Source: Amphiscolops sp. MND2022 (taxonomy: Eukaryota). Taken from it: a stretch of 64,000 bases of DNA. Positions within the stretch are counted from its first letter, which is position 1, and every line of letters starts with the position of its first letter. Below are positions 13,174 to 55,434 of the stretch, one piece after another. A model generated the notes under the pieces. That model made no database searches and had not been told where the DNA came from. It worked only from the letters and a program-made list of their open reading frames with translations. The DNA lies in NCBI GenBank assembly GCA_964187785.1, contig OZ076409.1, forward strand, positions 4,776,001 through 4,840,000, given 5' to 3'. Made by a program: the position numbers and the translations under genes.

Positions 13174-14421
13174 GTCAGTACTTCTGTCGTACCTCAACGA
13201 CCCGGGTTCGATCCCAGTCAAGGTCCGAGTTTTTGATTTTTTTTTGAAAAATCTCAGAACCATTTCTTCTGTCAACGGTTTTAAACAAAAATTTTTAAAT
13301 ACTGAGGATCAGCCTGATTTAAATTAATTTGTACACTTAACCTTAAATATATATTTGAGAATGTATTAGTTTTGAGCTGATATCTTATCTTAAAATTATC
13401 TTAAAATCTATGCTTCATGCTTCAACTGTTTTAGCATATGCGGGTAATTTATTTCCAAACAAATTTATGAACTTTTTTTAAAAAAAACATCAACATTAAT
13501 GACTTCGCTTCGAAGTATAATTTCCCTCACTAATGTCTAACCAAAATTCCTTCAAATTCATGTACCCCGTTTGGAAAAATGGAATCCTTGGAAAGATCTT
13601 GCAAGACTGAAGATTTTGATTGGTCTAGATAATTTCTTTTTCAGATAATATTCGGGTTCCTCAATTTTAACGAAATTTTGCGAATAAAATGTGTTGTTAT
13701 TTATTTCTCTTTTCACTTTCAAAATCTTTCACAAAATTAACACCTGTGTTAGCTTTTGTAAGTTCATTGGAACAAATCCAAAATTGAAATGGATTTTACA
13801 ATAGTGATTTTGACAGATTTTTTTGCCAATTTAAGAAAATATCGATGATTGACAAGACATTGAGAGATTATTGCAAGAACTTTCAAGTAAAATGTTTTTA
13901 TGAAACGACAAATTCTCTGTTCTGATTGGTTAAAGATTCGTAATCACACGATCGACCCAACTACACTCAAACTTTCATCTTATTCATACTGATTATGTCT
14001 CAATAGCTCGTCGTATTCAAATGCATATCAATTAAGCAATTGAATGTTTGAAAATTTTGCAACTAATAGCTAGGATAATTATCCTGTCATGAATTCGAGA
14101 ACTTGAGTAAATGTAAGTGAAATGTAAGTAAAAGTGTCTGTAAATGAAAGGTATTAAAGATTTTAAAATCTTTAATACCTTCCATTTACAGACATTGTTT
14201 AGACCATTAGAGTTCCATTTAGTTCATAAAGAATTAGTTATAAAGATCACAAATTGCCAACAAAATGCTGCTTAGTTTTCGTATAATTAGTTTTTAGGGC
14301 TTGAAGAGTTTCAGATATCTCATTGTTGAGCTTTGGTTTCTTTCATCTTCATGGCATTCCTGACATCTGGCCTATTTTCAGTAGAATATGTGCCCGAATC
14401 TTACAGTGGCTAGTTTTTTCA

Positions 14422-14717
14422 GACGCGTAAGGTCCACTTTTTGTTCATTTGTCCAACAACTCTGAAACACTCGAACCTCAGAAACGCGTCCAAAACGAAA
14501 AGAAAAAACTAAAAAGACGTCCAGAACCTCGAAAACACACTAATGATCCCATTCCGCACTTTTTTCGGCACTATGCGACTTTTTTTTGAAACTTTTTGGA
14601 TTGCATCAAGGGGTCCCCCTTCATTTGTTTCGATATTTTGCAACACCCTTTTACATTTGTCGGCACTGTGACACTGTTCAAAAATCTCATTAAAAAATTT
14701 TCCCCAAAGGGTCCCCC
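14422..14717 (+). repeat. Left copy of the 296-bp target duplication flanking the Ty3/gypsy element
   Basis: Matches 20591-20885 with 1 substitution and 1 T indel. Confidence 0.95.
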
Positions 14718-17700
14718 TGTTATACGGTTGATCCGATTGACCCCTATTGAGTCCCAACTACAAACTACCACCCAATTCTCTAGCATACCTAAGAATTGTA
14801 TACAAACAAACTCTAAATAGATTACTCTACTCTATACTCATTTTTGGATACGATTTTGAGATAGAACATACGATAAAAAGATTGGGAATAAACACATTAC
14901 TTTTATTTGTTTTCTCATATATCTTACATCAACCTTAGAATAGAACATGGCGCAGTCAGCCGATTTTTAAATTGAACAAACCCTTTTAAAACGGAAAACA
15001 ATGGCCGATAGAAATATCGTCCCAAACCTAGAAACAAAAGCCACAGACGGAAACCCGGTATTTACACCGAGACAATGGCTTGAAAGGTTCCGGCAGTTTT
15101 GTAAACGGGAACACAAAATTGACATTAACCCAATAATGAAAGGAGGAGATATTACGGATGCCGATTGGAACGGAAAAGAACAAGCCGTACAAGAAGATTT
15201 TATATGGGGAGTGGGACCGGAAGCATTATATCAAATAACTAGGGCCGAATATAAAACGGAACCCGACAGCATAAAAGTGAAAGACCTAATCCGGTTATTC
15301 ACCGAATTCTATATGCCGAAAAGAAACACTTACCACAACCGCGGACATTTCTTCTGGGCGAAGCAGACTGAAGATGAGACACCGGAAGAATTCTGGAGAC
15401 GGCTAATCGAAATCGAAAAGGAATGTAACTTCAATGCAATATCAGCCGAAGAACTGTTGATATCAAAATATATGACAGCGATCACCGATAAAAAATTACG
15501 GGACAAAATAATGAAAGAAAAAACGTTGGAACTAAAGAAAGTAATCGAACTGATAAAACAAAACACGTACGAGAAAAAGAATAAAAAGAATACAATACCG
15601 GAAGCTTTGATATCAACAAAAGAAAAACACATAATTAAAGAAGAACCGATCCAAAGAATGGAAAGATTCGGAACAAGACCGAAAAATAAAAACTTCGGGA
15701 ACCGAACATGCAGATTTTGTAATGCTTAAAACTGGACACCAATGCATAAATGCCCCGCATTAGAAGCCAACTGCAACAAATGCGGAAAGAAAGGACATTA
15801 CGCAAAAGTATGCAGACAGAAATTCAACAACAACCGAACGGTGAAAAGACTAACCGAAGAAGAAACAAACGAACCGAACGAATCAACAAGCGACTCAGAC
15901 GTAAGCATTCACCACATAAAAGAAATCAAGAAGATAAACGAAATGAACAAACACTTTACGGCAACAGTACAAATCAACGGAGTAAAGAAGGAATTCATAA
16001 TCGATACCGGATCACCCGTTACAATAATGCCCTCCGACGAAAGAATCATGAAAGCTACCGAAATTCAGAAAATAACAAATAGATACCAAGATGTGAACAA
16101 AAACGAAGTGAAATTCCGGGGAAAAATTCCGGTGAACATAGAATACGAAAACAACAAACAGCAAATGGAAATTTTAATTACCGAGAGAACAGATATAACA
16201 CCACTACTCGGAATGGACTGGATGAAGAAATTCAAACTAACAATCGGAAAAATACAATTGGCCGAGAACAACCAATCAGAACGCGAGAAAGTGTTCACAA
16301 AGTTCCCGGACCTATTTGAAAACAATGAAACAATAAAAGACACCGAAATAAAACTTCAATTGAAACCGGGACACCAACCGATAAAACAGAAAGCCAGACC
16401 GGTACCACTACATCTACAGAAAGATGTAGAACGAGAATTAGAGAGATTAATAAAATTCGGACACTTGGAAAAAGTAAACAATGTAGACGAAGATTGTTTT
16501 GTCTCTCCGGTGGTGATAACCGTAAAAAGTGATAAGTCGGTAAAAATAGCACTGGACTCACGGAAACTAAATGATAGTTGTATCAAGATGAGATCACATA
16601 TGCCGAACATGGAGGAATTACTAAACCAGATTTCGATTGAAATTACCCGTGACCGTACAGCACAGTTATTCATGTCAAAAATTGATTTGGACTACGCATA
16701 CGGACAAATGAAATTATCAGATGAAACCAGCCGACAGTGCGTATTCGCATTAACTGGAGGAAATTTCAGCGGATACTATCGATTTAAAAAGGGATTTTAC
16801 GGATTGGCCGATATCCCCACGATATTTCAAGAAAAGATTGACCGGACACTCGAATACTGTACACCGGCTTGGCTAGACGACATAATCGTGGTAACTCGCG
16901 GAAACAAACAGGACCACGAAGGAAAATTATTCGACATTTTGAATAAATTAGAGAAAGCCGGATATAGAGCGAGTAAAAGAAAGTCCGAATTCTTTTTGAA
17001 CCGAACAAAATGGCTGGGACACGAAATAGATGAGAACGGAATTAAACCGAACGAAGAAAAAATCGAAGCGATACAAAAATTAAATCCACCGAAAAACACA
17101 AAAGAATTAAAATCATTTCTCGGAGCAATACAATATATGGCGAAATTCCTACCGAAACTTTCGGAACGGATAGACCGACTGAGGAAACTTCTGAAAAAAA
17201 TGAACCATGGAATTGGGAAGAAGAAAAACAAAAAGACTTTGAAAAAATAAAACAAATGTTAACCGAAGGACCATGCCTGGCCCATTACGCGAAAGATAAA
17301 GACAATATAGTGACAACAGATGCAAGCACTACCGGTCTCGGAATAACACTTTGGCAAAAACAAGACGACGGAAACACGAAACCGATAGCATACGGTAGTA
17401 GATATTTGAATGAAACCGAAAAGAAATATTCAATCGGTGAATTGGAATTACTAGCGGTAGTATGGGGATTAGAGAAATTCCGATTTTATTTATACGGAAA
17501 GAAAGTATATCTATATACGGATCATCAAGCATTGGAACCACTGAATAAACGAAACCGGTGTAACAAACAATATAGCGCAAGATTAACACGGTGGTTAGAC
17601 CGATTAACACACTTCGACATTTCAATACAACATATCGCCGGCAGCAATTTGAAATTCACCGATTATCTCAGCAGAAATCCGGTAGGGGGAGCAGCACCGG

Positions 17701-20590
17701 AAGAAAATTACGAAGAAGAATACGTAATTAACATATTAACCGAGCACGCCAAATTAAACTTGGAACACGGAAGACTATTCGTCGACCAATCAAAACACGA
17801 TAAACGCAAAACCGAATTACGCAGTGACGCAACCGAAACAAAAGATGAGCGCAACGAAAACCAATCACAAACGAATAGAATATTCGAGAACATAAACAGC
17901 GTGAACAAAACCGAACTCAACAAACCATCTACATCCGGGCAGTCCGAAATTAGCACTTCAAAATCAAGTTACCATTCGTTACAGCAGAACACTGAGAAAA
18001 TGGATAGAGAAAACTTTTATCACTGGGGAGCCACCCGTGAAATCATGAACATTATCAGACGCCGCAACAACAGTCCGGAAACCAAAAGATTGATAGATCA
18101 ACGAAATGCACTATCCCGGCCAGGAACCTTGAGACGCCGGTATGATCATCAAACACAGCGGACAGTATTCGCACCCTCCCGTCCCAACAAAAGAAGCCGC
18201 GAAGAAATTGCAGAAATTGACGCGGAAATCATGAGACGCGCAAATAGACTGGGAGGAGGATACCAACCATTACAGGAAGAACCGGAAGATAATACGGAAG
18301 AGGGCGAAATTAACCAGGAACCAGAAGACACCGAGGAATACAGCGTACTGCTACGCGAAGATAACTTGCCAATAGTAGATCTAAGCAAGTACAACACTGA
18401 CGGGAAGGAGGCAAAATACATCCAGATCAACCACATCGTGGGGAAACTGACAGCTAACAAGAAGATCACGGAGGAGAACATCAAAAAAGCCGAATTCGAG
18501 TTCATGCTGGACTTGAAAACCCTCATCTCAAAGACCGCGACAGACCCTGAACTCACTCATGTACGGAATAGCATGAGACGCGAAGACCGTGAAATCACCC
18601 CGGATGGTTATAAACCGGTTTTCGACAAACTATCAATCAGATGGGGGCTGGTATTTGTGGACGATCAAATAGTGATACCAATTGATCTCCGAAGAAGACT
18701 TTTGGATATTCTCCACTTCGGCCACGCCGGAATGACAAAGATGGAAACCGAGGCCAAAATATTCTGGTGGCCGACAAAGAAGTCCGACATCGAAATGAAA
18801 GTTAAAGACTGCACTGCATGCCTTGCCTCAGGTAAAAATCTCAAATATCAATTACCGAGTAAACACTACGGAAAACTAGGAAAATTAACCGAACCGGGAC
18901 AAGAAATACAAATCGATTTCACCGGATAACTACACAATCAAAAAATACACGGAGACGTACAAATACTAATTGCGGTAGATAGATTCAGTAAATGGCCTAC
19001 CGTAAAAATTTGTAAAACTGCCGAAACAAAAGAAGTGATACAGTTTTTAACAAGTAATTTTAATTTATACGGAATACCGGAGAAAATTAAATCGGATAAA
19101 GGAGGCGCCTTTATCTCAAAAGAATACCGGCAATTTTGCAAAAACCGGAACATAGAAATCGAATATTGTACACCCCGGATACATACGGGAAATGGAGCGG
19201 TGGAACGAGCAATACAGACACTAAAAAATCTAGTGTTAACAAACATGGAAGACGGTAAAAACCTTACCGAAAGTGTAAACCGAGCACTCCGAGTAATGCG
19301 ATTTACCGTACACACCGGACTTAAGAAAACACCATTTGAATTACATCACGGAAGAAAGCCGAGAACCGAATTAACAAACATTGTTAAAGAAGGTAAAACC
19401 TTCCTATCTGATTGGTCAGAACTATCTATTTCAGCACCAATAAGACCGAAGATCCCCATCTACGTGGGTCGAGACGGAGAAGGCGAAATAACAAACCATA
19501 TCATTATGGCACGAAACAAAACGGAAGAGAAGAGACTAGCAGAGGGACCGAAATCACCGAAAAAGAAACATTCGGTTAGCTATCCTTTTAAATTTCGAGA
19601 AAAGAACCATAACAAAAAATCCCTAGAAGGAAAATTTCAAAAGAAAATACAAACCGCAATAAGCGGAACCGAAAACACCGTGAAAACGGATACCGGAAAA
19701 ACCATCAGCCGAAAATTTATTTCGGGCCCATTATTTCAGAATGAAAAAAAGACAAGACGAGAACCGGCACCAATGACAAGCGGTGAAATCTTACCGAAGA
19801 ATAGACACTGCCTCCGTGGACTAGACGGGAAGTATGGCCGCTGGGACGAAATCCTACGGGACATACAAAATGGAAAACTAAAAATAGTACAAAACAGAAA
19901 GATCGACAGCGAGACAGAAGACGAGGATGATGATGAGGACGAAGAAATGCCGGAGGAGACCGGAAACATCACATATGATACATCCGAGCGAAACGGAAGA
20001 TATGCTCCGATACAAACGAATCCGGAAGACGAAGCAATACAAATTCACACCGAGGATGAAATTTCTGGTGAGAATTTAGAACATAACATACGGCGTTCAA
20101 ACCGAAAAACAAATAAACCGAATAGATACGGTGGTTTATCATATACAGGAAACTTTTGGGGATAAACAGAAAATTAATTTTATGTTTTACAGGAAATCCC
20201 TGGAACAGAAGAAAAGAGACGCCACAACCGGAAGTGATCCAAAAGCCGGCAGACTTCCTACAACAGGATCTGGAGACGACACCAATCCGACCATCAACAT
20301 CGGCATCAAAGAACCCTTCCGACAATTAGAAGAGAACCAAAAAGAGGAGAGAGGGGGAAATGTTATACGGTTGATCCGATTGACCCCTATTGAGTCCCAA
20401 CTACAAACTACCACCCAATTGTCTAGCATACCTAAGAGTTGTATACAAACAAACTCTAAATAGATTACTCTACTCTATACTCATTTTTGGATACGATTTT
20501 GAGATAGAACATACGATAAAAAGATTGGGAATAAACACATTACTTTTATTTGTTTTCTCATATATCTTACATCAACCTTAGAATAGAACA
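14718..20590 (+). mobile_element. Full-length Ty3/gypsy LTR retrotransposon
   Basis: 230-bp LTRs 14718-14947 and 20361-20590 (TG...CA, 2 differences). PBS TGGCGCAGTC at 14948 (tRNA-Ser-like). PPT AAAGAGGAGAGAGGGGGAAA before 20361. Domain order gag-PR-RT-RH-INT. Confidence 0.97.
15001..20165 (+). pseudogene. gag-pol polyprotein, disrupted (TAA 15727-15729, frameshift in the A-run near 17195, TAA 18927-18929)
   Basis: Zn knuckle CNKCGKKGHYAKVC; protease IDTGS; RT IDLDYAYGQ...WLDD; RNase H TDAS...ELELLA...YTDH; integrase HHCC, IDF and SDKG...E. Confidence 0.93.
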
Positions 20591-20885
20591 GACGCATAAG
20601 GTCCACTTTTTGTTCATTTGTCCAACAACTCTGAAACACTCGAACCTCAGAAACGCGTCCAAAACGAAAAGAAAAAACTAAAAAGACGTCCAGAACCTCG
20701 AAAACACACTAATGATCCCATTCCGCACTTTTTTCGGCACTATGCGACTTTTTTTGAAACTTTTTGGATTGCATCAAGGGGTCCCCCTTCATTTGTTTCG
20801 ATATTTTGCAACACCCTTTTACATTTGTCGGCACTGTGACACTGTTCAAAAATCTCATTAAAAAATTTTCCCCAAAGGGTCCCCC
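20591..20885 (+). repeat. Right copy of the target duplication
   Basis: Begins immediately after the 3' LTR terminal CA. Confidence 0.95.
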
Positions 20886-22309
20886 CTTCATTTTTTTCCA
20901 TATTTTGCAATCAGCTGGAGTTTCATGAAGCTCAAAGGGTCCCCCTTTTACAATTTTGAGCCTTAGATATAGCGCCGACTTTGGCCGTTCTCGGTTTGTT
21001 TTATCTTCCAAGGCCTATTTCTCCGTTAGCAGTTTTTTCTCCGAACCTACTTCGGTTTGCTTTTTCCAAGACTTTGGGCTACATTTTAGTTGAATTGTTT
21101 ACTACAATTAGTTCTGGAATTCTGTTTCCAGAAAAGTCCTGGCTACAATTGGCTTTTTGTCGAAAGTTTTTTAAAAATCGTTGAAGCTTCGGACATTTTT
21201 TGTCGGAATTTCTTACCCCTTCCCTCTTTTTCTGGTTCCCTACCACAAGCAGCGCTTCCGCACGATTCCGGCGTTTCGTTTTGCCAGAAAATCCTGCAAA
21301 GCCGCTGAGACAGAAAGGCCAAATTATGTTAACCTTGATAAGACACGAATGTGAACTTTTAAGACAGTAAAAGTTTCAAAATTAATCATTTCTTTCAAAA
21401 AAACTTTCGACCGATTGGTGCATGGAATAGAAAGTTTGCTGAGGCGGCCTCTAGGCATTATATCAATTCAGCGGTCTCACTGAAGGTGTGAATGTCTCAT
21501 TGTCTAATTGCAGCTCGAGTGGAAGCGCAACGTGAGTTGCGTCTATGCTTTCACGACTAAGTTTTATGGAATAATTTATCTCAAATGATGTGTTCGGAAA
21601 CTTTAAAAGGACAAATTCGACGTCAATTAGAACTAGCTGCGAATAGTCCTTGTTTTTGAAAGTTTCCTTAAAAATAAGATGTGATAAATAAACTCCAAAC
21701 TAAACATTAAAAAAAACTATTATGGTGAAATGTTAATTCACAGCCGCTATCTTGCCAAGCGATATCGCCTTAATTTACAAACCTATACACACTTTGTTCT
21801 ACCTACCATCAGCTACCATCAACAGCGTTTCAAAAAAGTTAATCTACTGGATAATATGAAAACTGTTGACATTTTCCCTATTATTTCCGTCTCCACAACT
21901 CATTGTGCAGGGGAGGAAAATAACTATCTGTGTAGCGTTTTTTCCGAATTCTGCAAAATATCCACTCTACTACTCCATTTAAAATATGGATACTTTAGTC
22001 ACAGTGGCTCAATTCGTAGTGCGTCCGAGTGGGTTCGAATCCGTGTTGCAGCCTGAAATGTTTGTGTCTCGGTGCTTAGCGGTCGTCATGGTAACTTTTG
22101 ATCCGTGCTATAAAAATCAGGTACTGTCCAGCAACAACTTCTGTCGCATAAAATGCTCCGTGATTTTAATTCTTGAACAATTCTACAGATCTAAACACCA
22201 GGTAAAGCAAATATGCATAAGGAGTTCCAAACTCGCAATTTGAAGTAAAATATTTCTATTGCCTTCGTCCTGACAAGATCCAACTAATTTCAAAAACAAT
22301 ATTTTACCA

Positions 22310-23836
22310 TTTGCAAATCAAATTCAACATTCTGAACATTCAAATTCAACGTGAATTCTTTCAATTTCAACACATGGATAGTCAAGTTCAACATGAAAGC
22401 TTTCGAATTCAATCTGGAATTTTTTCATGTTTGCTCACATTCAAGTTCAACATATCATCTTCAAATTCAACACATCCAAAGCTAGTTGAAATAATTGAAG
22501 AAAACCTTTCCTAATGCCCCGAGAAAGATATCAAGAAGTGTCGGCAGATGACTCATAGTTTTATACGCTCATATAGAAATAGAATTTTCCGGCGTTGTTG
22601 AAACTAATTTCTGCTTAGGATTTTAATATTTTAGGATGGCGAAGATTTTGTCCAATTGGCCCGAGTTATGAGAGTGAACAGAACGACTGCTACCTACTCT
22701 ATTGTAAACGTTGACTATTTGGGAAAACCATGTGGAGGACCTCACAATGTCAAATTCGACGACGAAATGCAGTTGAAAGTCCAGGAATTTCTGGAAGATA
22801 ACGTGCATTTGACAATACGCGTTCTAAAAGCAACACTCAGACTCGAACTTCCAAATAAACCTAATGTTCATGATAAAACTGTCTCAAATGCTACTGAAGG
22901 GCTGCCTTTCAACTGAAAATTGCAAGAGAATATCCGCAGGATAGAAACAGTGCCGAAACTAAAGCATGGCGAAAAGAGTATTGGGAGTGGTTGAAAAGTG
23001 CTGAAGTATTGAATGCGATGAAAATTTATATTGATGAGTTCGGTTGTAATATTCACATAAAAAGAACTTTTGGACGCTCAAAGAAAAGTGAGAGGGCTCA
23101 TAGAAAAATCACTTCTCAAAGCGGGGGAAACATTACTGTTTGTGCTGCCATTTGTGTTGAGCTCGGAATGGTATATTATCAAATGTATTCAAGAGGGATG
23201 AAAAAGGACCTGTTTGTGAAGTGTTTGGAAGATGATAGCGCTAACGTGATTGCTGAATTCGGGACCATCACTGTTTGCGCTTTTCCCATTTTCGATAACG
23301 CTCCAAGTCATCAGAATATAGAGGAAGGAACTGCTATAGGCACTCTTCCAACCAAACGTTTGCCCAAATTTTCTCCATTTCTGAATCCATTTGAAAATGC
23401 ATTTTCTGCTTGGAAAGCGGCACTGAAGGCTCTCTTGTCCGCAAATCAACGTGTGTTTTCATCGCTCAATGAAAACGGACGAGAAAATTGGACAAACCTT
23501 GTGTAATTTCCATTTCCACAGAATGAAGGAGTTCATTGAAGAGAGTTCTCGCACTGTTACATCTTTTAAATGCTCTCAATGGCAAAACTTTACCACAACT
23601 TTTCATTCGAAATGCTTAACAATGCAAACAATTGACTGAATATGAACACAAATATCACTGTTCAGTAATTTGGCGAACTTGACTTTCTTCTGTTTAATTT
23701 GATTCTCACATTACTTATATGTGTTAAATTTGAAATTCTACCTGTCGAACTTGAATGTTCGTTAACGTATAAGTTGTTCAACTCGAATGTTACATTGTTG
23801 AATTTGAATGTTCGGATGTTGAATTTGATTTGCAAA
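22310..23836 (+). mobile_element. Degenerate Tc1/mariner/IS630-superfamily DNA transposon, copy 1
   Basis: Imperfect TIRs TTTGCAAATCAAATTCAACA...; transposase fragments IYIDEFG, FDNAPSH, LPKFSPFLNPFE; stops and frameshifts. Confidence 0.85.
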
Positions 23837-24166
23837 AACATAATAACTCGTATACAGCACAATTTTCATGTTATGGGGGTTACACAAAGGAACCATGATG
23901 TTACTTTTCAAATGGAAAAAACATAAAAGTTGGTCAGAATCAAAATCGACACTCTTTCTGAAAAGACTTGAACGAATTATGGTACGAATTCTGACAGAAA
24001 TCACGTGTAACGCCGGATATAGCGCAGTTCTCATCGAAAAAGTTTATATATCCGAAAGCGGTACTTTTAGACTATAATTAGAACAGATACGGAAATGCGG
24101 CGTAAAATATTTCTATTGCCTTCGTCCTGACAAGATCCAACTAATTTCAAAAACAATATTTTACCA

Positions 24167-25691
24167 TTTGCAAATCAAATTCAACATTCTGAACATTCAA
24201 GTTCAACGTGAATACTTTCATTTTCAACACATGGATAGTCAAGTTCAACATGAAAGCTTTCAACTTCAATCTGGAATTTTTTCATGTTTGCTCACAATCA
24301 AGTTCAACATATCATCTCAAATTCAACACATCCGAAGCTAGTTGAAATAATTGAAGAAAACCTTTCCTAATGCCCCGAGAAAGATATCAAGAAGTGTCGG
24401 CAGATGACTCATAGTTTTATACGCTCAAATAGAAATAGAAACTTCCGGCGTTGTTGAGACTAATTTCTGCTTAGGATTTTAATATTTTAAGATGGCGAAG
24501 ATTTTGTCCAATTGGCCCGAGTTATGAGAGTGAACAGAACGACTGCTACCTACTCTATTGTACACGTTGACTATTTGGGAAAACCATGTGGAGGACCTCA
24601 CAATGTCAAATTCGACGACGAAATGCAGTTGAAAGTCCAGGAATTTCTGGAAGATAACGTGCATTTGACAATACGCGTTCTAAAAGCAACACTCAGACTC
24701 GAACTTCCAAATAAACCTAATGTTCATGATAAAACTGTCTCAAATGCTACTGAAGGGCTGCCTTTCAACTGAAAATTGCAAGAGATTATCCGCAGGATAG
24801 AAACAGTGCCGAAACTAAAGCATGGCGAAAAGAGTATTGCGAGTGGTTGAAAAGTGCTGAAGTAGTGAATGCGATGAAAATTTATATTGATGAGTTCGGT
24901 TGTAATATTCACATAAAAAGAACTTTTGGACGCTCAAAGAAAAGTGAGAGGGCTCATAGAAAAATCGCTTCTCAAAGCGGGGAAACATTATTGTTTGTGC
25001 TGCCATTTGTGTTGAGCTCGGAATGGTATATTATCAAATGTACTCAAGAGGGATGAAAAAGGACCTGTTTGTGAAGTGTTTGGAAGATGATAGCGCTAAC
25101 GTGATTGCTGAAGTCGGGACCATCACTGTTTGCGCTTTTCCCATTTTCGATAACGCTCCAAGTCATCAGAATATAGAGGAAGGAACTGCTATAGGCACTC
25201 TTCCAACCAAACGTTTGCCCAAATATTCTCCATTTCTGAATCCATTTGAAAATGCATTTTCTGCTTGGAAAGCGTCACTGAAGGCTCTCTTGTCCGCAAA
25301 TCAACATGTGTTTTTATCGCCCAATGAAAACGGACGAGAAAATTGGACAAACCTTGTGTAATTTCCATTTCCACAGAATGAAGGAGTTCATTGAAGAGAG
25401 TTCTCGCACTGTTACATCTTTTAAATGCTCTCAATGGCAAAACTTTACCACAACTTTTCATTCGAAATGCTTAACAATGCAAACAATTGACTGAATATGA
25501 ACACAAATATCACTGTTCACTAATTTGGCGAACTTGACTTTCTTCTGTTTAATTTGATTCTCACATTACTTATATGTGTTGAATTTGAAATTCTACCTGT
25601 CGAACTTGAATGTTCGTTAACGTATAAGCTGTTCAACTCGAATGTTACATTGTTGAATTTGAATGTTCGGATGTTGAATTTGATTTGCAAA
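24167..25691 (+). mobile_element. Same transposon, copy 2 (part of a tandem duplication)
   Basis: Near-identical to copy 1, with an extra frameshift near 24980. Confidence 0.85.
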
Positions 25692-26899
25692 AACATAATA
25701 ACTCGTATACAGCACAATTTTCATGTTATGGGGTTACACAAAGGAACCATGATGTTACTTTTCAAATGGAAAAGGAATAAAAATTGGTCAGAATCAAAAC
25801 CGACACTCTTTCTGAAAAGACTTGAACGAATTATGGTACGAATTCTGACAGAAATCACGTGTAACGCCGGATATAGCGCAGTTTTCATCGAAAAATTTTA
25901 TATATCCGAAAGCGGTACTTTTATACTATAATTAGAACAGATACGGAAATGCGGCGTAGGTTAAATGGGAGTCCCGCCTTTGTGGACTAAGTATCAAATA
26001 ATATAAAAAATATATTAAAATACCAAAAATACAATGCCAAAAAAAACACGATAAGAAGAAACATTTACGGTGTAAAAACGTTTTCCACCAATTTTATCCA
26101 AAAATTGTAATTGTTGAAGAAAAATATATATAACAAGACGACCGCTAAGCACAGGGATATTTTCCGCGAAACGCTTATTGCAAAAAAGTATGGCGAAGGA
26201 GAGGTTCGAACCGAAGACCTACTGGCTGGGAAACAAAAACATCAAGCACCAGCCTTGGTTCGAACCCAGTGCCTACAACCTGACTGAGCCTACATGGAGT
26301 GGAGATAAAGTGGAGTTTTGGCAGAATTTGTAAAACAAAACGCATCACAGATCATTTATGTGGGCGGAAAATAATAAACTGGAAACAATCTTCAATAGCG
26401 GTTGTTGAAACTTCCTGTTACCATAATTCATCATGTAGTCATCTTTTCTGACGGTCATTTGTGGAATTACGTTTTGTGATATGTGGTGTCACTTTGCATA
26501 AAAATCATTCCACAAAAATGCTCTCACTGCCTTGTTTGATTTCTCAGTTAGAAAAAACCCTTTTGAGCTCAAGAGATCCGCCTTTGGAGTTTTTTGGCAC
26601 AATGTGATTCTTTTCAAAATTTGTTTTTTACTTTTTCTTTTTGGTTTCTCCGCACTTTCAGGTTGGATTTTTTTCGGAATTATGAGCTTCAATTTTTTAA
26701 ACAAATAGTTCCTCAATGATTTGTAGTACTTTGCCGGCGGCCGGTTTTGAATTCTTATTCATTTAATGACGCTGATGACAATTGAATGGGTACATTCTTT
26801 TTTATTGTAATCGAATCGAAAAGAATACGACAGAAAAACACAAAACAACACTTTTACGAAATCTTTTACGACCATTATCGTTTTCTTCGTAACACGTAA

Positions 26900-40245: not shown

Positions 40246-43200
40246 TGTAACGTCCAGCAAAAGACGTCACAAAAATTCGATGAAATGTGCGATAGCAAAA
40301 TTTCTAAATCAAGATGGCCGACCTGACAGGTACTGGAAATTGAAAAGGATGATGGAAAATAGTGCAAACGACACCCCCACCCAACCCGAGAGAGAACACA
40401 CCGTCACAGAAGTATCCCCGAAATCGCCGTGTTGTGCGATCTCCCTCGGAAGACGTCCCAGCTGCCAGCAGAACCCGAAGAATGGCCCAAGAGATGAAGA
40501 AACTCAGAAGTTCGCATATTTTGCGTGTGCCACCTAGTAGGTCCAAGACCAAGGCTCGCTGACACTGACGCCTGATGTTTTCTGAATCTATTGTACCATA
40601 TTTGCGGTTTTTGTAGGTGTTTGGTGATGTTTTACCCCTTATTTCACCCAGTTTAGACGTTATTCACTAATTGAATGTACTTTGGCTAAACCCCTGTTTT
40701 TGGACCTCGGAGGTATGTAGAAACACGCAGGAACATTAGGAATTGTTTTTACAGGCTTGTGGGACGTGTCCGGACTTTGAGAGAGCCGGCACGTCGCCTC
40801 GGAGCTCTAACTGAGGAGACTCCTTAGACGTATAGGAAAAGTCCCTTTTAGGAGACCATTTTGGGATTAAAAACTAATGTCTAGGTTGTAGTAAGACACT
40901 GGTCTCCTGTTCAAGCAATCTAGGCATTGTCCCACTTCTATGATGTACTCTGCTAGGTGGTTGACGTTACATCTAGAATAGTTTTTATGGCGCCCCACAA
41001 GGGACATTTTTCCATCTTTTCGCCATAATTGGAGTTTTTCCTGCTTTCCGGCCCTGCTAGGTCTAGATCTAGGAAAATTTGTTGGAGAGTCCTAGATTAT
41101 TTTTATTGCCTTAGTCAAGCCTGGTAGGCTTTCTACTAGCTGAATTCCTGCGTTTCCTGCGTATTTCCGAGGTCTGAAACCGAAAATCGACGATTTCAGA
41201 CAGTGTATCCCTTGTATTTTGATAACACCTGTTGAAAATGTTAATCCGGCCTATCCGGAACTGGTTTTAAAGGGTTTTGTAGCTCCGTTTCAGTAAACTA
41301 GCAATGTATGGGGACCGGGAGGACGAGTGCTGAAGGCCCCAATTAGCTGACGACAGTGTGTGAGCACCTCCGACATCACACCTCCAGTACCGCTGTAGTT
41401 GCCGTATACCCACGTCAATCGGGTTATATTGCTAATTCTTGCTAATAATCGGCCCAAAAAGCATATTCCCAGGCCTGTTCCCACTAAAATTAACTAAATT
41501 AACTGGGGAAAATACCCTGTGGGTGTTTGGACCAGTTGATTAAAAATTTGAGCGCGAAAACCTTGAAAACAACACCATATATAGCTCAAATACCGATTTT
41601 TGAGGTGTTGAAAGTTGAAATCTAGTGGAAAAGGATACGGCCAGTGGGAATACGAAAAAAACGTTCCATCGGACCTGCTAGGTCAGGAACAGAAAAATTT
41701 GCTGGGCTAAATTACTGAAACATCAAAAAAATTTAGCAATTTTTGTTTAAAAAACATCAATTTTGGCCTAAAAGAAAAAAAATTTGTGAGGGCGAAGCCT
41801 TGGGCATTTGTTCCCAAGTTTTAAGATCAGCCCAAAAACGTTGTTCCTGAGCTTGGTAGTACGAAACACTACTGTCAAGACAAATTTTAGCACCCCCCAA
41901 TAAAAATTGAAACTTTAACCCTTGATTTTCTTTTGTTATATATAGACCTGAGTAGAGGACCACGTAGACCTGAGCGTTATAAAAACCTAACTAATAATTG
42001 AAACAACCCCAGTCCCCTCAATAAAGTTGTCACACTTTCTAACACTACTATTAGAACCATTCGGAACGTCTGAGAACCGAGAAACAAAAAGTTCCTAGGG
42101 AAAATACGTATTTTCAGTACTGTCCCGAGAGTGTCAAAGGTGCAACTTGAAAGTTATTTTGAGAGACCTTATTTGGAACCTGCCAGGTTTCGCTCGCCTA
42201 TTTTCCGTTAGTATAGGGTATAACGTTGCAAACGCGGAAAACTGCGAGTAATTCCAACCAGTAGTTGCTGAAAAATAGTCGAAAACGCGTTGTTTTTGCG
42301 ACATTTTCGGAACACTGGAGTAGTGTCCCCAAGATAGGTCGAAATCTCTCCTGATAGGAGTAGCTCAAAACAGATTGCACCATCGTATAGATCATAAAAA
42401 GTTACGTTGGTGGTGTAATTGTCGTAGTGCTACCACTACTGGTGATTGAGAAATCTAAGCCGCAGTTTTGCTCAAAAATTGTACGAAACTGTCAAAAAAA
42501 AATCGAATTTTAGTTGAGCGTAGTGCAATACCTTCGGAGTATCCCAGCACTAAAATTCTTGCATTTTCGTACACACAGCACTAGATCCCGACGATTTGTG
42601 CATTTTGAGCAGCTTGCTACTGTCCAATTTGGAGAAATTGACATTTTTGTGAATTTTGGCCCCAGGAAGTGACTAATAGGGTACATCATAGTTTTGTCAA
42701 CTCGGATTGCGGAATATTGACCTGGGCACCCCGCTATTTTGTTTTTCTGTTACGTGGGCCTAATTCATGCTCGCATACAAAATTTCAGGTAGCTAGGAAG
42801 CCTAGAAGGCGAGTTTGACAGACTTTTGTAAATTTCACAACATAGTCGATTCTTCAAACAACATTCTGAAGCAACCCCAAGTCACGTATAATCAATTTTG
42901 GCGCAATCGGCGGTGATTTTCCCACGATTTGGTCACAATAGTATACCGTGTTAATTTTTCAGGTCGCTAGTAGCTCTAGAAGTGATTTTCACCTTCCCCA
43001 GGCGTGCATTTTGGCGTAGGAATTGCCGATTTTGAGAAATTTTGCGAAAAATTATACACTTTTCGTAGGTGTAGTTGCAAGTGAAGGTTTAAACGACCCT
43101 AGTTCTACACCAGACATTCATAGCACGTCCCATTGAAGTAATCAGAATGGAGCTAGCTCAACCCTAAAATCTTGGGTTTGTCAAAAAGCTGTCTACGAGA

Positions 43201-45329
43201 CATAGGAGTGCAAAACACAAAAATTGCATTTTCTCTCCCAACGGCCACCAGGGTCACCTAAGTGTGAACTGATAGGTGCATTCACGTTTGCCTCGACTGA
43301 GAAGTGACGCGAGAGAGCTAGAACGCAATTAGGAGTTCTCTAGGAGACGTGGATAGTGGACGCGGTGCGTCTCGAGACAGAAAATTGAGTAAATTTGAAA
43401 TTGTAAAGAACTGTATTTCCATTGATCGTGCTACGATCGTAAGGCAAGAAAGCACTTCAAACTCAGTGTTCATTGTCCTACTCATCCCCGAGGTCTACCC
43501 CTAGTCCCTAATAACATTTTTGTTTTTACTTGTGCTCTCCAGAAACAGGGCAGCATGAGTGACGAAACGACTTTTCAGACAATCTAACGTCTGTAGCCAA
43601 GCAGGCTTCTCAAAAAATCAATGTTCGTTGCTTGATTCATGCCTAAGGTGAACCTCGGTACTCGGTACCACAGTTGCATGAACCATATCGATGTGAAAAC
43701 ACCGGACAAGAGATTGGCCCGGGGAGCACCTGTACTCTGCCGAAAGGAATCAACACCAAGCATGATAAAACACCTGGAGTTTCGAAGCTCTGAGAACTGC
43801 TTGGCCTGCGGCCGTGCTTTTAGAACTCGAATGATTGCTCTGAAACTTGTTTTTGAAGCCAAAGACTGTTTTCATTGTTTTAATGATCCACTATACCTGA
43901 TTTTTTAACTTCCCTTGGTCATAGTCTATCATCGCTATCGACATAATCATCCTCTTGAGAAGCAGTTTATTTCCATCTTTTACATATACACTTGTGCCTA
44001 TATTACCTACACAACACCTTTATCTGAGCGTACACTGCTAACTCAATAGATTGAATGGGTCCTCGCTTTTGATGATATTTTTGAATTTTTGGGATCTATT
44101 TCTCTATTTGTGCTTTTTATTGTGCAGTTTCTGTTGGCCATAAACTACGACACTTTTGCAAGACCACAGCCATTACTTTTACTCTTCGCTTTTCTAGTGC
44201 TATCGTGCATTTTGTACAACCTAACCTATCAGGTGGGACCGAGATTGATGCCAATCCTGTTGTGATGAGTGCTTTTTATGCAGATGCAAAAAGGTGCTAG
44301 AAATTTTGAAATCTTGGTGCGAAATTAAAAGTTTGAAAATGTTTTGAATAAAAGGCTAAGTGTCTAAAGTTGCTAACGCTATTCCAGCGCTAGAACCCAT
44401 TGTTGGTGTGGAATCCAAGGAAATCTGCCAGGCTGGCAAAAACTCGTGTTTTTGGGCAATAACATGTTCTTGGGCAATGACTTCCATTTAGATTCCTGAA
44501 GTACCATGTCACAACTGCATCACTGGATCACTGGATGATGGCAACCAAGACGTGAACGTCCACTTTCGTTTGTCGAGGACGACAAACTACGGCCCGGGGA
44601 GGATGTAACGTCCAGCAAAAGACGTCACAAAAATTCGATGAAATGTGCGATAGTAAAATTTCTAAATCAAGATGGCCGACCTGACAGGTACTGGAAATTG
44701 AAAAGGATGATGGAAAATAGTGCAAACGACACCCCCACCCAACCCGAGAGAGAACACACCGTCACAGAAGTATCCCCGAAATCGCCGTGTTGTGCCATCT
44801 CCCTCGGAAGACGTCCCAGCTGCCAGCAGAACCCAAAGAATGGCCCAAGAGATGAAGAAACTCAGAAGTTCGCATATTTTGCGTGTGCCACCTAGTAGGT
44901 CCAAGACCAAGGCTCGCTGACACTGACGCCTGATGTTTTCTGAATCTATTGTACCATATTTGCGGTTTTTGTAGGTGTTTGGTGATGTTTTACCCCTTAT
45001 TTCACCCAGTTTAGACGTTATTCACTAATTGAATGTACTTTGGCTAAACCCCTGTTTTTGGACCTCGGAGGTATGTAGAAACACGCAGGAACATTAAGAA
45101 TTGTTTTTACAGGCTTGTGGGACGTGTCCGGACTTTGAGAGAGCCGGCACGTCGCCTCGGAGCTCTAACTGAGGAGACTCCTTAGACGTATAGGAAAAGT
45201 CTCTTTTAGGAGACCATTTTGGGATTAAAAACTAATGTCTAGGTTGTAGTAAGACACTGGTCTCCTGTTCAAGCAATCTAGGCATTGTCCCACTTCTATG
45301 ATGTACTCTGCTAGGTGGTTGACGTTACA
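40246..45329 (+). mobile_element. Non-autonomous LTR element (LARD-like), no gag/pol
   Basis: 726-bp LTRs 40246-40971 and 44604-45329 (TGTAACGTC...GACGTTACA, about 5 differences). tRNA-Lys-like PBS TGGCGCCCCACAAGGGAC at 40988-41005. PPT GGGGAGGA before 44604. Confidence 0.92.
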
Positions 45330-52533: not shown

Positions 52534-55374
52534 CTAACTCGTCATTTTCCACGTCGACTTTATATGATAATTGTAGGAATTGGCAAAATATTCTTTGAAA
52601 ACTTTGGTAAGATCTTCTTTAATTGTGGGAGATAGTAGGTCAATGTCTTTCTTGGTCGCTTGGTGAATCGCAATAGACCGGTACCAAAAATTTTGTCTAC
52701 TTGAAGATAATCGCAGTTTCGGTAGTACAAATAATTCGGACTCGGCAGCTCTCGTTCTTTTATCTGAAGGGAGAAAACGTACCTTCGGCTCCCAGTCATA
52801 GTTGTACTTGTCATTGACTATACGACTCAAGAGAAGGATATCATGTAACTCAATGTATAGCGAGATTGGTAATAAATTCAGGCGGTGTAGTCTCATTTTG
52901 TAATCTGGCTCATGGTCGATCCATTTCGTAACGCGTGCCTGAAACAATTCTAAAGCAGAAAGCGAATTGGTATTTGCATGGCTAACTTGCATGCCATAAG
53001 TTAAAATTGGGACTAATAAACCACGATATAAGTTCATTTTCGCTCCTTTGGATGTTCTCGGGGAAACATTTCTTCTGATCATGTGAAACATGCTATAGGC
53101 TTTAGAAACTCTACTTTTAATATGTTCGCTCCAATTCAGATTGTCACAGATGATAACTCCCAGGTCCTTTTCACATTGTTTTCTCTCAAAAACGGAATTT
53201 CCAAACAAAAAGGGTCCCTGGTCTTTGCCCTTGAATAGCAGATAACCGCATTTACTAATATTGGCGCTCATTCTGTTGGAATTACACCATTCAAGGATAT
53301 GTCTCAAGGATAATTGGAGATTTTGATGGTCGTCAGAATATAGTTTTAGGTCATCAGCGAATAATTTGGAATCCACGCTCAAGTTTTTAACTACATCATT
53401 GATGTAAGTGACAAACATTAGTGGTCCCAGCAGCGACCCTTGGGGGACACCACTTGTGGCGTATTTGTAATCCGACAAACTGCTGTTTACTCTAACTCTT
53501 TGCCTTCTGTTACTAAGGTAATCCCTAAGTATGTCATGTAGACCCCCCTGAATCCCAGCTGACCATAGCTTCCGTAAAAGGATGTTGTGGCAAATTTTAT
53601 CAAAGGCTTTTTCGAAATCGATGTATATTGTCGCAAAGTAAGAAATATCCTGATTTTCTCTAGCTCGGTAGATATCGTCCACATAGTCCAAAAGTTGAAG
53701 AACGGCAGATTTGTTTCTAGAAAAGCCGTACTGAGAAGAATTTATATCATCCTTGACGTGTGCATATATGGCATCGTATAGTATGCGTTCGTAGACCTTC
53801 GATATCGTGCAAAGGAGCGCCACTGGGCGATACATTTCAACGCAGCTCTTATCACCCTTTTTGAACAGCGGAACTATTGTGGCATCTTTCCATGCTGACG
53901 GGAATTTGTGCTTATTTGCAGCGGTCCTCAGGAGTAGGTAAATTGACGGGGCTAAAGATTCGGCACACTTTTTGAGGAAAATATTCGGAATATTGTCTGG
54001 TCCACGTGATTTGTTCACGTTTAAATTAGACAGTATTTTAACAATATCGCGCACGCTGAAGTGTATACTGCTGGTTATAATCCTTGGTTCAGTATTTACC
54101 AATTCATCGGATTCCAAAAATTGGGTAGCAATGTTATACACACTTGCGAACCAATTGTTAAATAAATTCGCTTTGTCAGTATCAGTTTGGACTTGCTTGT
54201 CTCTATAGTGCATAACTGAGGGGAGTCTGTCAGGTGATTTGATTTCTTTGATATAGCGGTAAATTTTGTCAAAACGTCTTGACCTAAACACATTTTCCTC
54301 GTAATCTAATTGATCTATACTTGTCATCTCCTTGATAGTTGTAAGCAGGTTTAGAATTTTGCACGATCTGGCATACGAAAAGTTTCGTAACTGTTTTGAT
54401 TCCATTGATTTCATTTTCCTTATAACGCATGAAGTTTCTGGTTTTATCCATGCTGGTAAAGAAGATCGGTGCTTGGTGCGTTTGGGAATGGTTTGTTTGT
54501 GAATTTCATCTAACCAAGTGTACCATTGCTCAGTAAGAACATCCACATTACTATAACAGTACGGAGTAAAAGGGTTTGATAATATATAATCGTTTACGGA
54601 TGGAAAGTCCGCTTTTGAGTAAGAGTAGCAATTGAGTTTGGCGTGGGGTGTTGGGTCATAATAGGCCTCGAACGTCATGGAATAGGGATAATGGTTGCTC
54701 AGTGGTTTATCGTCAATGGCAAACGATTTATGCATAGTAAGATTTATCTTACACAGGGTCACAAATTCTGGGCTGTTCGTGAGAATGACCTGGAGTGAAT
54801 TTCCAGATGAGTCTTCATGAATCATTTGCTCGAAATTGTAGTAGACAAGTAAATCCAATATTTCCGATTCAAAGTTATCAGAAGACTCCATCACATACCA
54901 ATTGGTAAATTCAAAGTTTATATCTCCGGTGATAATTACGTGCTCTATGTTATTGCTATTCTTCAGATTATCTATATTCACAAGGAAGTCCGTGAATTTT
55001 TGTAATGACCATTTATAGGGACTATTGGCTGGGGCTGAGTAGATTGATGCAATTAAAATCTTTGTATCATCGAGATCGATTTGCACACAGGCACAATCGT
55101 CATTGGCTACATTTGGAAGTTGTATTTCTTTAGAGATAAGCCGCTTCGACAACGCAATTAACGTACCTCCGTGACTTGTTTTATCGCCCGATTTGGATGG
55201 TCGGTCGCCTCTGAATACATTGAACTGGTTTAAGAATAACGAATTGTTTGAGATTGCTGAGGTAAGCCATGTTTCTGATAAACAAACGATATCAATGTCC
55301 TGTAGCGCTAATGAGTTGGCTAATGTCTGTCTTCGTGTAATATCTAGAATGCTCCGGACATTATAAATTAGCAC
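52534..55374 (-). CDS. LINE ORF2: AP endonuclease plus reverse transcriptase, intact 946 codons
   Basis: YNVRS, LSETWL, GDIN, SNH (APE); KSRGPDNI, IDFEKAFD, GVPQGSLLGP, FADD (RT). Confidence 0.96.
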   Translation of the reverse strand: MLIYNVRSILDITRRQTLANSLALQDIDIVCLSETWLTSAISNNSLFLNQFNVFRGDRPSKSGDKTSHGGTLIALSKRLISKEIQLPNVANDDCACVQIDLDDTKILIASIYSAPANSPYKWSLQKFTDFLVNIDNLKNSNNIEHVIITGDINFEFTNWYVMESSDNFESEILDLLVYYNFEQMIHEDSSGNSLQVILTNSPEFVTLCKINLTMHKSFAIDDKPLSNHYPYSMTFEAYYDPTPHAKLNCYSYSKADFPSVNDYILSNPFTPYCYSNVDVLTEQWYTWLDEIHKQTIPKRTKHRSSLPAWIKPETSCVIRKMKSMESKQLRNFSYARSCKILNLLTTIKEMTSIDQLDYEENVFRSRRFDKIYRYIKEIKSPDRLPSVMHYRDKQVQTDTDKANLFNNWFASVYNIATQFLESDELVNTEPRIITSSIHFSVRDIVKILSNLNVNKSRGPDNIPNIFLKKCAESLAPSIYLLLRTAANKHKFPSAWKDATIVPLFKKGDKSCVEMYRPVALLCTISKVYERILYDAIYAHVKDDINSSQYGFSRNKSAVLQLLDYVDDIYRARENQDISYFATIYIDFEKAFDKICHNILLRKLWSAGIQGGLHDILRDYLSNRRQRVRVNSSLSDYKYATSGVPQGSLLGPLMFVTYINDVVKNLSVDSKLFADDLKLYSDDHQNLQLSLRHILEWCNSNRMSANISKCGYLLFKGKDQGPFLFGNSVFERKQCEKDLGVIICDNLNWSEHIKSRVSKAYSMFHMIRRNVSPRTSKGAKMNLYRGLLVPILTYGMQVSHANTNSLSALELFQARVTKWIDHEPDYKMRLHRLNLLPISLYIELHDILLLSRIVNDKYNYDWEPKVRFLPSDKRTRAAESELFVLPKLRLSSSRQNFWYRSIAIHQATKKDIDLLSPTIKEDLTKVFKEYFANSYNYHIKSTWKMTS

Positions 55375-55434
55375 GTGGATTATTCGTTTAATACGTTGAT
55401 CGCCGAGATACCTCGGTGAGATACCCGAATGTAG

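Follow-up and report, generated by a model that had tools for sequence, protein, structure and literature searches.

Integration of a Ty3/gypsy retrotransposon ordinarily leaves a target-site duplication of 4–6 bp. The closest described departures from this rule come from retroviruses: with ASLV vectors, and with HIV-1 in the presence of integrase inhibitors or weakened integrase mutants, integrase inserts one viral DNA end and host enzymes insert the other (Varadarajan et al. 2016, Hughes laboratory; PMC5041404). In the sections of that report on which we draw, the aberrant end is described as often truncated and often associated with short homology, the host duplications extend over "hundreds or thousands of bp" as against the normal 5 bp, and the aberrant events also include deletions, inversions and foreign inserts (PMC5041404). 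Natural counterparts have been reported for HERV-K (HML-2), where loci have target sites duplicated over lengths of 111 and 250 bp and, putatively, 450 bp (Kahyo et al. 2017; PMC5488345). For two of these long-duplication loci the passages considered here describe a pre-integration allele with one copy of the segment, and the authors leave open a "pseudo-TSD" produced by recombination (PMC5488345). Among non-LTR elements, duplications of 126 bp for the rotifer element R9, and longer ones for Dualen, are cited in bioRxiv 10.1101/2022.05.23.493040. In the open-access literature we found no account of long duplications occurring naturally around Ty3/gypsy elements or around any other non-retroviral LTR element.

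Here we describe such a duplication in Amphiscolops sp. MND2022, whose assembly comprises 1.07 Gb. The window, that is, the whole stretch of 64,000 nucleotides that was analyzed, is C1:4776001-4840000, where C1 denotes contig OZ076409.1. It contains an LTR element of the Ty3/gypsy type (14718–20590, 5,873 bp), which has 296 bp of target sequence on both sides and is set into a host repeat. The features of the locus, in window coordinates, are as follows.

14376..14421, no strand assigned: 5' part of the host interspersed repeat, unduplicated; matches to the repeat family begin at ~14376
14422..14717, plus strand: left copy of the target segment, 296 bp; its last base adjoins the TG of the 5' LTR
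14718..14947, plus strand: 5' LTR, 230 bp, TG...CA
14948..14965, plus strand: putative primer-binding site (PBS), read from the sequence, beginning with TGG directly after the 5' LTR
14971..17247, plus strand: first frame, with gag-like region, protease and reverse transcriptase (Pfam); stop at 15727–15729
17046..20162, plus strand: second frame, shifted by one base, with RNase H and the zinc-binding and core parts of integrase (Pfam); stop at 18927–18929
20340..20360, plus strand: polypurine tract (PPT), read from the sequence, directly before the 3' LTR
20361..20590, plus strand: 3' LTR, 230 bp
20591..20885, plus strand: right copy of the target segment, 295 bp; its first base directly follows the CA of the 3' LTR
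20886..21002, no strand assigned: 3' remainder of the host interspersed repeat, unduplicated; the family is colinear to ~21000–21008

The element itself is conventional in its architecture. Its two LTRs of 230 nt each match at 228/230 positions, with 2 substitutions in a global alignment, and the termini are TG at the start and CA at the end. Pfam profiles place an aspartyl protease and RVT_1 within 15742–17247, and RT_RNaseH and Integrase_H2C2 within 17256–18926; the integrase core is split by a stop, and its profile (rve) lies within 19035–20162 at 30.1 bits, below the cutoff of 32.6. The resulting order of protease, reverse transcriptase (RT), RNase H and integrase is the Ty3/gypsy domain order, with a change of reading frame between RT and RNase H. 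Thus the TG...CA LTRs, the order of pol, and a putative PBS and PPT are all present in this copy. The one Ty3/gypsy trait that it lacks is the target-site duplication of 4–6 bp, in place of which it has 296 bp; this absence characterizes the insertion event rather than the lineage of the element. Judging from its reading frames, the copy is now dead. Both in-frame stops are private to it and would have been acquired since insertion: the stop at 15727–15729 is a sense codon in 12 of 12 sister copies, and that at 18927–18929 is a sense codon in 14 of the 15 sisters compared, the remaining one giving no match. Elsewhere in the same window there is a nearby, unrelated tandem duplication with a unit of 1.86 kb.

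To describe the flanks quantitatively, we aligned the two copies of the segment globally. They are 99.3% identical, differing by one substitution (G/A at the sixth base of the segment) and one single-T indel in a T run. The alignments confirm the earlier description of the locus, in which the LTRs differ at 2 of 230 positions and the flank copies by 1 substitution and 1 indel, each copy adjoining an LTR end. The length of 296 bp likewise stands, to which we add a 2-bp ambiguity at the U5 junction: the CA at 14420–14421 is the same as the final dinucleotide of the 3' LTR, and our repeat search listed the flank pair as 14420–14717 and 20589–20885, in two blocks owing to the one indel. This 2-nt CA overlap at the 3' LTR (U5) junction, expected by chance in about 1 case in 16, is the sole irregularity, both junctions being exact in this copy. 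No 5-bp duplication is present at the LTR ends, and the element and its flanks contain no N bases. The duplication is ~60 times longer than the usual 5 bp.

The state of the locus before insertion can be read from paralogues of the host sequence. The segment sits inside an interspersed repeat of ~460–530 bp, with more than 3,000 candidate copies genome-wide that are ~80% identical. All 28 of the 28 members that we fetched hold the segment once, and they are colinear with 14376–14717 plus 20886–~21002 in one uninterrupted stretch that runs across both duplication boundaries. This colinearity bears out the proposal of the initial annotation that deleting the element and one copy of the segment restores a single intact repeat. 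The nearest other member of the repeat family in the genome is only 84–85% identical, compared with 99.3% between the two flank copies, indicating that the second copy is a local duplicate and not another member of the family; the similarity of the flanks is far beyond chance. The paralogues serve here as a proxy, as no empty allele or alternative haplotig of this locus was found in the assembly. The repeat had been called HINE-like. The hallmarks of a HINE (Helentron-associated interspersed element), as given in the part of PMC4067079 considered here, are subterminal inverted repeats and a 3' stem-loop; a scan of 3 host-repeat members, whose ends are mapped imprecisely, found no end-to-end subterminal inverted repeats. 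The window contains no Rfam or tRNA match.

We then compared this insertion with the rest of its family. A family-specific motif at the start of the LTR occurs only 53 times in the genome, so the sample of sisters is nearly complete. Counting the present copy, 27 copies with paired ends were examined and 26 were evaluable, the excluded one lying in a tandem array. Ordinary 5-bp target duplications directly at the TG and CA are present in 21 of the 26 evaluable copies (two with one mismatch) and at all three solo LTRs of the family. No evaluable copy is without any duplication, and we saw no target sequence shared among the family's insertions. A further locus, C1:35.67M, shows a 3' LTR for which neither a 5' LTR nor a local duplicate could be detected, and was left out of the evaluable set. 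Had the segment been part of a longer LTR in other family members, a reading that the initial annotation had itself raised, it should recur in the sister flanks; it lies beside no LTR of the other 25 evaluable sisters, and that reading is ruled out.

Broader motif searches reach related elements as well. At ≤2 mismatches, the genome has 1085 instances of the LTR-end plus PBS motif and 446 of the PPT plus LTR-start motif. Ten C1 elements that share only the former motif belong to other families with other LTRs, and in the three of them that are readable no long duplication was found. Of ten copies fetched with the PPT motif, six were unreadable, and the other four come from a subfamily whose LTRs are ~77% identical (with only 14 LTR starts in the genome): three have normal 5-bp duplications and one lies in a tandem array.

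The present copy is not alone in its family. Long duplications adjoining the element ends are found in 5 of the 26 evaluable copies (~19%), this copy included, with lengths of 296, 332, 347, 537 and 604 bp.

C1:4.79M (this copy): 296 bp; exact at both junctions, with the 2-nt CA overlap at U5
C1:69.24M: 537 bp, 4 substitutions; U5 junction exact, 2 extra nt (filler) separating the TG of the 5' LTR from the duplication
C1:58.42M: 604 bp, 5 substitutions; U5 junction exact, 8 extra nt (filler) at the U3 junction that repeat the adjacent hexamer
C9:37.21M: ~332 bp, with indels and ~10 substitutions; exact at U3, with a possible overlap of 3 nt at U5
C1106: 347 bp, 3 substitutions and 1 indel; U5 (3' LTR) junction exact, other end truncated

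Filler or truncation at one junction is thus seen in 3 of the 4 other cases, and the element at C1:58.42M also carries an internal deletion. At C1106 the element lacks its entire 5' LTR, together with 11 nt at the start of the PBS, and is joined to its flank after 1 extra nt. This break lies within a dozen bases of the end of minus-strand DNA before the second strand transfer, which suggests that an unfinished cDNA was inserted. At U5, nothing is lost from the terminus in any of the 5 cases (the terminal base of the C9 copy being mismatched), and the U3 terminus is likewise complete in all 4 full-length ones. As at the present locus, no haplotig or empty allele of the C1106 locus was found in the assembly. 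The five duplicated segments have no mutual similarity, and the five elements are scattered over the LTR tree, indicating five independent events; on this sequence evidence, the same accident appears to have been fixed at least five times in a small family. A captured transcript of the host repeat, acquired by template switching, was also considered as the source of the 296-bp segment and is ruled out: the two copies are 99.3% alike compared with at most ~85% elsewhere, and the other four segments are unrelated DNA.

Three further features of this set bear on its origin. Five duplications stand against zero deletion-type events among the 26 copies (p = 0.03 if the two are equally likely). The lengths fall in two groups, 296–347 bp and 537–604 bp, with only five values on which to base the grouping. 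Finally, divergence within the insertions gives a mixed picture of their timing. The initial annotation had taken the similar divergence of LTRs and flanks as a sign that the duplication dates from the insertion, and for the present copy that comparison holds (LTRs 0.9%, flanks 0.3–0.7%); over the four long-duplication copies with both LTRs it is noisier, with 17/915 substitutions in the LTRs and 20/1769 in the flanks (p = 0.09). In the first three cases listed above, divergence is greater between the two LTRs than between the two flanks (14/687 versus 10/1437, p = 0.008). Such an excess would be in keeping with a duplication made after the insertion, but the C9 case goes the opposite way.

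How do these insertions compare with the systems described above? Relative to ordinary Ty3/gypsy integration, the architecture and the TG...CA ends are the same, and 21 of the 26 family copies keep the 5-bp duplication. The resemblance to the aberrant ASLV and HIV-1 events, as presented in PMC5041404, is close: a long host duplication adjoins the element, one junction is canonical, and truncation, short homology and extra bases are all seen across the five copies. The setting is different, however. Those events are experimental, somatic and vertebrate, and arise under impairment, whereas here we see fixed germline insertions of a Ty3/gypsy element with no known impairment, which make up ~19% of the evaluable copies and include duplications only. 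The HERV-K (HML-2) loci, as far as the account in PMC5488345 that we use describes them, share with ours the property of being natural, heritable LTR insertions with duplications of a few hundred base pairs. They amount to a handful of loci, for which the empty allele is known, whereas our cases number five among the 26 evaluable copies of a single small family, and the pre-insertion state is represented by paralogous proxies. Compared with the pseudo-TSD option considered for HERV-K, the filler and the PBS-truncated copy found here point to the insertion step itself. With R9 and Dualen, on the partial account in bioRxiv 10.1101/2022.05.23.493040, the likeness is limited to the principle that duplication length corresponds to the distance between two target strand breaks or joins; those elements integrate by target-primed reverse transcription, relying on endonucleases that they themselves encode, whereas the present element encodes a DDE integrase.

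This leaves a mechanistic puzzle: How can a family with a 5-bp norm come to leave several hundred base pairs of duplicated target? On our own estimate it is quite likely that the duplication arose during insertion, by one route or another. As to the route, we lean towards a real Ty3/gypsy insertion made by aberrant one-ended integration. Integrase would have linked only a single end of the cDNA to the target as it normally does; host repair would then have copied a few hundred base pairs of the adjoining target before joining the other cDNA end. The element would thereby have come to be flanked on either side by the 296-bp target segment, where 5 bp is the norm. Strand-displacing extension from the nicked 3' end of the target, if that is how the copying proceeded, would yield duplications only. 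Some observations sit uneasily with one-ended integration: both junctions are clean in the present copy, with neither end marked as host-joined; the model expects deletions also, none of which is found among the 26 copies; and the greater LTR divergence of the first three cases, a signal weakened by the fourth, would suit a later duplication.

The all-duplication outcome might instead reflect a directed second route, regular in this family or in this host, in which about one in five insertions is finished by nick-primed displacement synthesis that always duplicates 0.3–0.6 kb and never deletes, the lengths falling in steps of approximately two and three nucleosomes. We consider this elaboration doubtful. 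If true, it would be distinct from the random duplication-or-deletion outcome of crippled retroviral integration.

Clean junctions are also what would be expected if integrase had joined both ends itself, at positions 296 bp apart (on neighbouring nucleosomes, for example), and the long single-stranded gaps had then been filled. At both junctions here, and at U3 in the C9 copy, the join is exact to the single base; five duplications with zero deletions are what a fixed polarity of the 5' stagger would give, and the two length groups could reflect nucleosome spacing, insofar as five values can suggest it. Three of the five cases, however, have filler or a truncated end at one junction, features that integrase does not create, and we know of no intasome geometry that spans hundreds of bases. 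We therefore consider such a wide stagger unlikely.

The irregular junctions lead in another direction, to capture that does not involve integrase: a free linear cDNA would be end-joined at a chromosome break, or at the junction of a small tandem duplication nascent during replication restart. Filler of 2 and 8 nt, the 8 nt apparently templated from adjacent sequence, would be accounted for in this way, as would a cDNA without a 5' LTR whose first base lies 11 nt within the PBS, and the possible overlaps of 2–3 nt at two U5 junctions. Moreover, the PBS and PPT touch the LTRs in this family, so that unprocessed cDNA would already have TG...CA ends. Against such capture, U5 ends intact in five of five cases and U3 ends in four of four full-length ones imply less nibbling than is usual for end joining, and capture offers no reason for breaks to carry duplications of 0.3–0.6 kb. 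Its probability seems to us as low as that of the wide stagger.

An error of assembly, such as haplotype sequence placed twice around a heterozygous insertion, is a still less probable source of the pattern. One of the two flank differences is a homopolymer length, a typical long-read error, and three of the five cases lie on the single contig C1 (3 of its 4 copies, as against 2 among the 22 on other contigs; p = 0.014 in a post hoc comparison over 13 large contigs). Nevertheless, the junction between the LTR end and the segment start is unobtainable by stacking two alleles of a normal insertion. There are true substitutions between the copies, ~10 plus indels in the C9 case, and the filler nucleotides and the PBS-truncated element are biological signatures; the region itself has no N.

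An origin after insertion has very little to recommend it beyond its geometry. Two family insertions at the edges of the segment on different homologues, followed by unequal crossover within the elements, would produce exactly the order segment, element, segment, and would allow the LTRs to have diverged further than the flanks, which two of the sisters show. It would need double insertions in the same orientation within 300–600 bp, five times over, which is extremely unlikely with ~53 LTR starts in 1.07 Gb and no shared target sequence. In addition, the closest relative of the 5' LTR is its own 3' LTR (228/230), and the filler and the missing 5' LTR would be left unaccounted for. We regard crossover as highly improbable. 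Least credible of all is a segment already in tandem before the element landed at its junction, which has no specific support (the tandem nearby, noted above, is unrelated) and is opposed by the lack of a flanking 5-bp duplication, by the single segment in 28 of 28 paralogous repeats, and by the need for an exact landing at a junction five separate times.

Events of this kind are already known from retroviruses and HERV-K; what is unusual here is their frequency of ~19% in one family and the duplication-only outcome. Target-site duplications of 4–6 bp serve to define LTR insertions and to detect them in automatic searches; insertions with long duplications are missed or misread as recombinants. 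The junction sequences at five loci allow the repair route to be inferred, and the all-duplication bias provides a testable departure from the retroviral model. If one-ended integration finished by host repair is indeed the route, its interest would extend beyond retroviruses in the laboratory or under drugs: it would leave heritable scars in the genome, and retrotransposition would be a direct source of small segmental duplications.

Four sister copies of the same Ty3/gypsy family as the focal element carry long flank duplications. C1 is the contig that holds the window, and C9 and C1106 are other contigs of the same assembly:

C1:69.24M, sister copy, flank duplication of 537 bp
C1:58.42M, sister copy, flank duplication of 604 bp
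C9:37.21M, sister copy, flank duplication of 332 bp
C1106, sister copy, flank duplication of 347 bp

Two of these four sisters have filler at the U3 junction, and one of the four lacks the whole 5′ LTR together with 11 nt of the PBS. With the focal element included, three of the five long-duplication copies of the family lie on C1; in a post hoc comparison, long duplications were found in 3/4 copies on C1 vs 2/22 on other contigs (p = 0.014).

The host repeat of the focal element (window 14422-14717 and 20886-20960) contains several short G/C-rich motif copies, each followed by similar T-rich sequence, and the 5′ junction of the element sits immediately after one such motif. At C1:35.67M, the 3′ LTR of a family copy adjoins base 1 of another, very abundant repeat in its downstream flank (C1:35669263-35669592); this repeat is ∼330 bp long, with >3,700 first-look candidates that are ∼90% identical. 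No 5′ LTR was detected for this copy at the expected distance.

A tandem duplication (window 22245-25958; two copies of a 1.86-kb unit, 97.9% identical) lies 1.4 kb downstream of the focal element. Three further features of the window are:

22898-23503, ORF inside this tandem duplication, match to the DDE_3 transposase domain
40246-45329, second LTR element, TG...CA LTRs of 726 bp, 99.3% identical
52534-55434, minus strand, open frame of 966 aa, AP-type endonuclease domain and reverse transcriptase

The five bases at the two sides of the second LTR element differ from each other, and this element is not bordered by any long flank duplication. Because the 966-aa frame combines an AP-type endonuclease domain with a reverse transcriptase, it represents a LINE-type element.

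At C2:29.70M and C1:41.02-41.03M, PBS and internal sequence directly follow a 3′ LTR, or a polypurine tract precedes a 5′ LTR. Judged from these junctions, the arrangement indicates that both loci are tandem LTR-internal-LTR-internal arrays, of the focal family and of a related subfamily.
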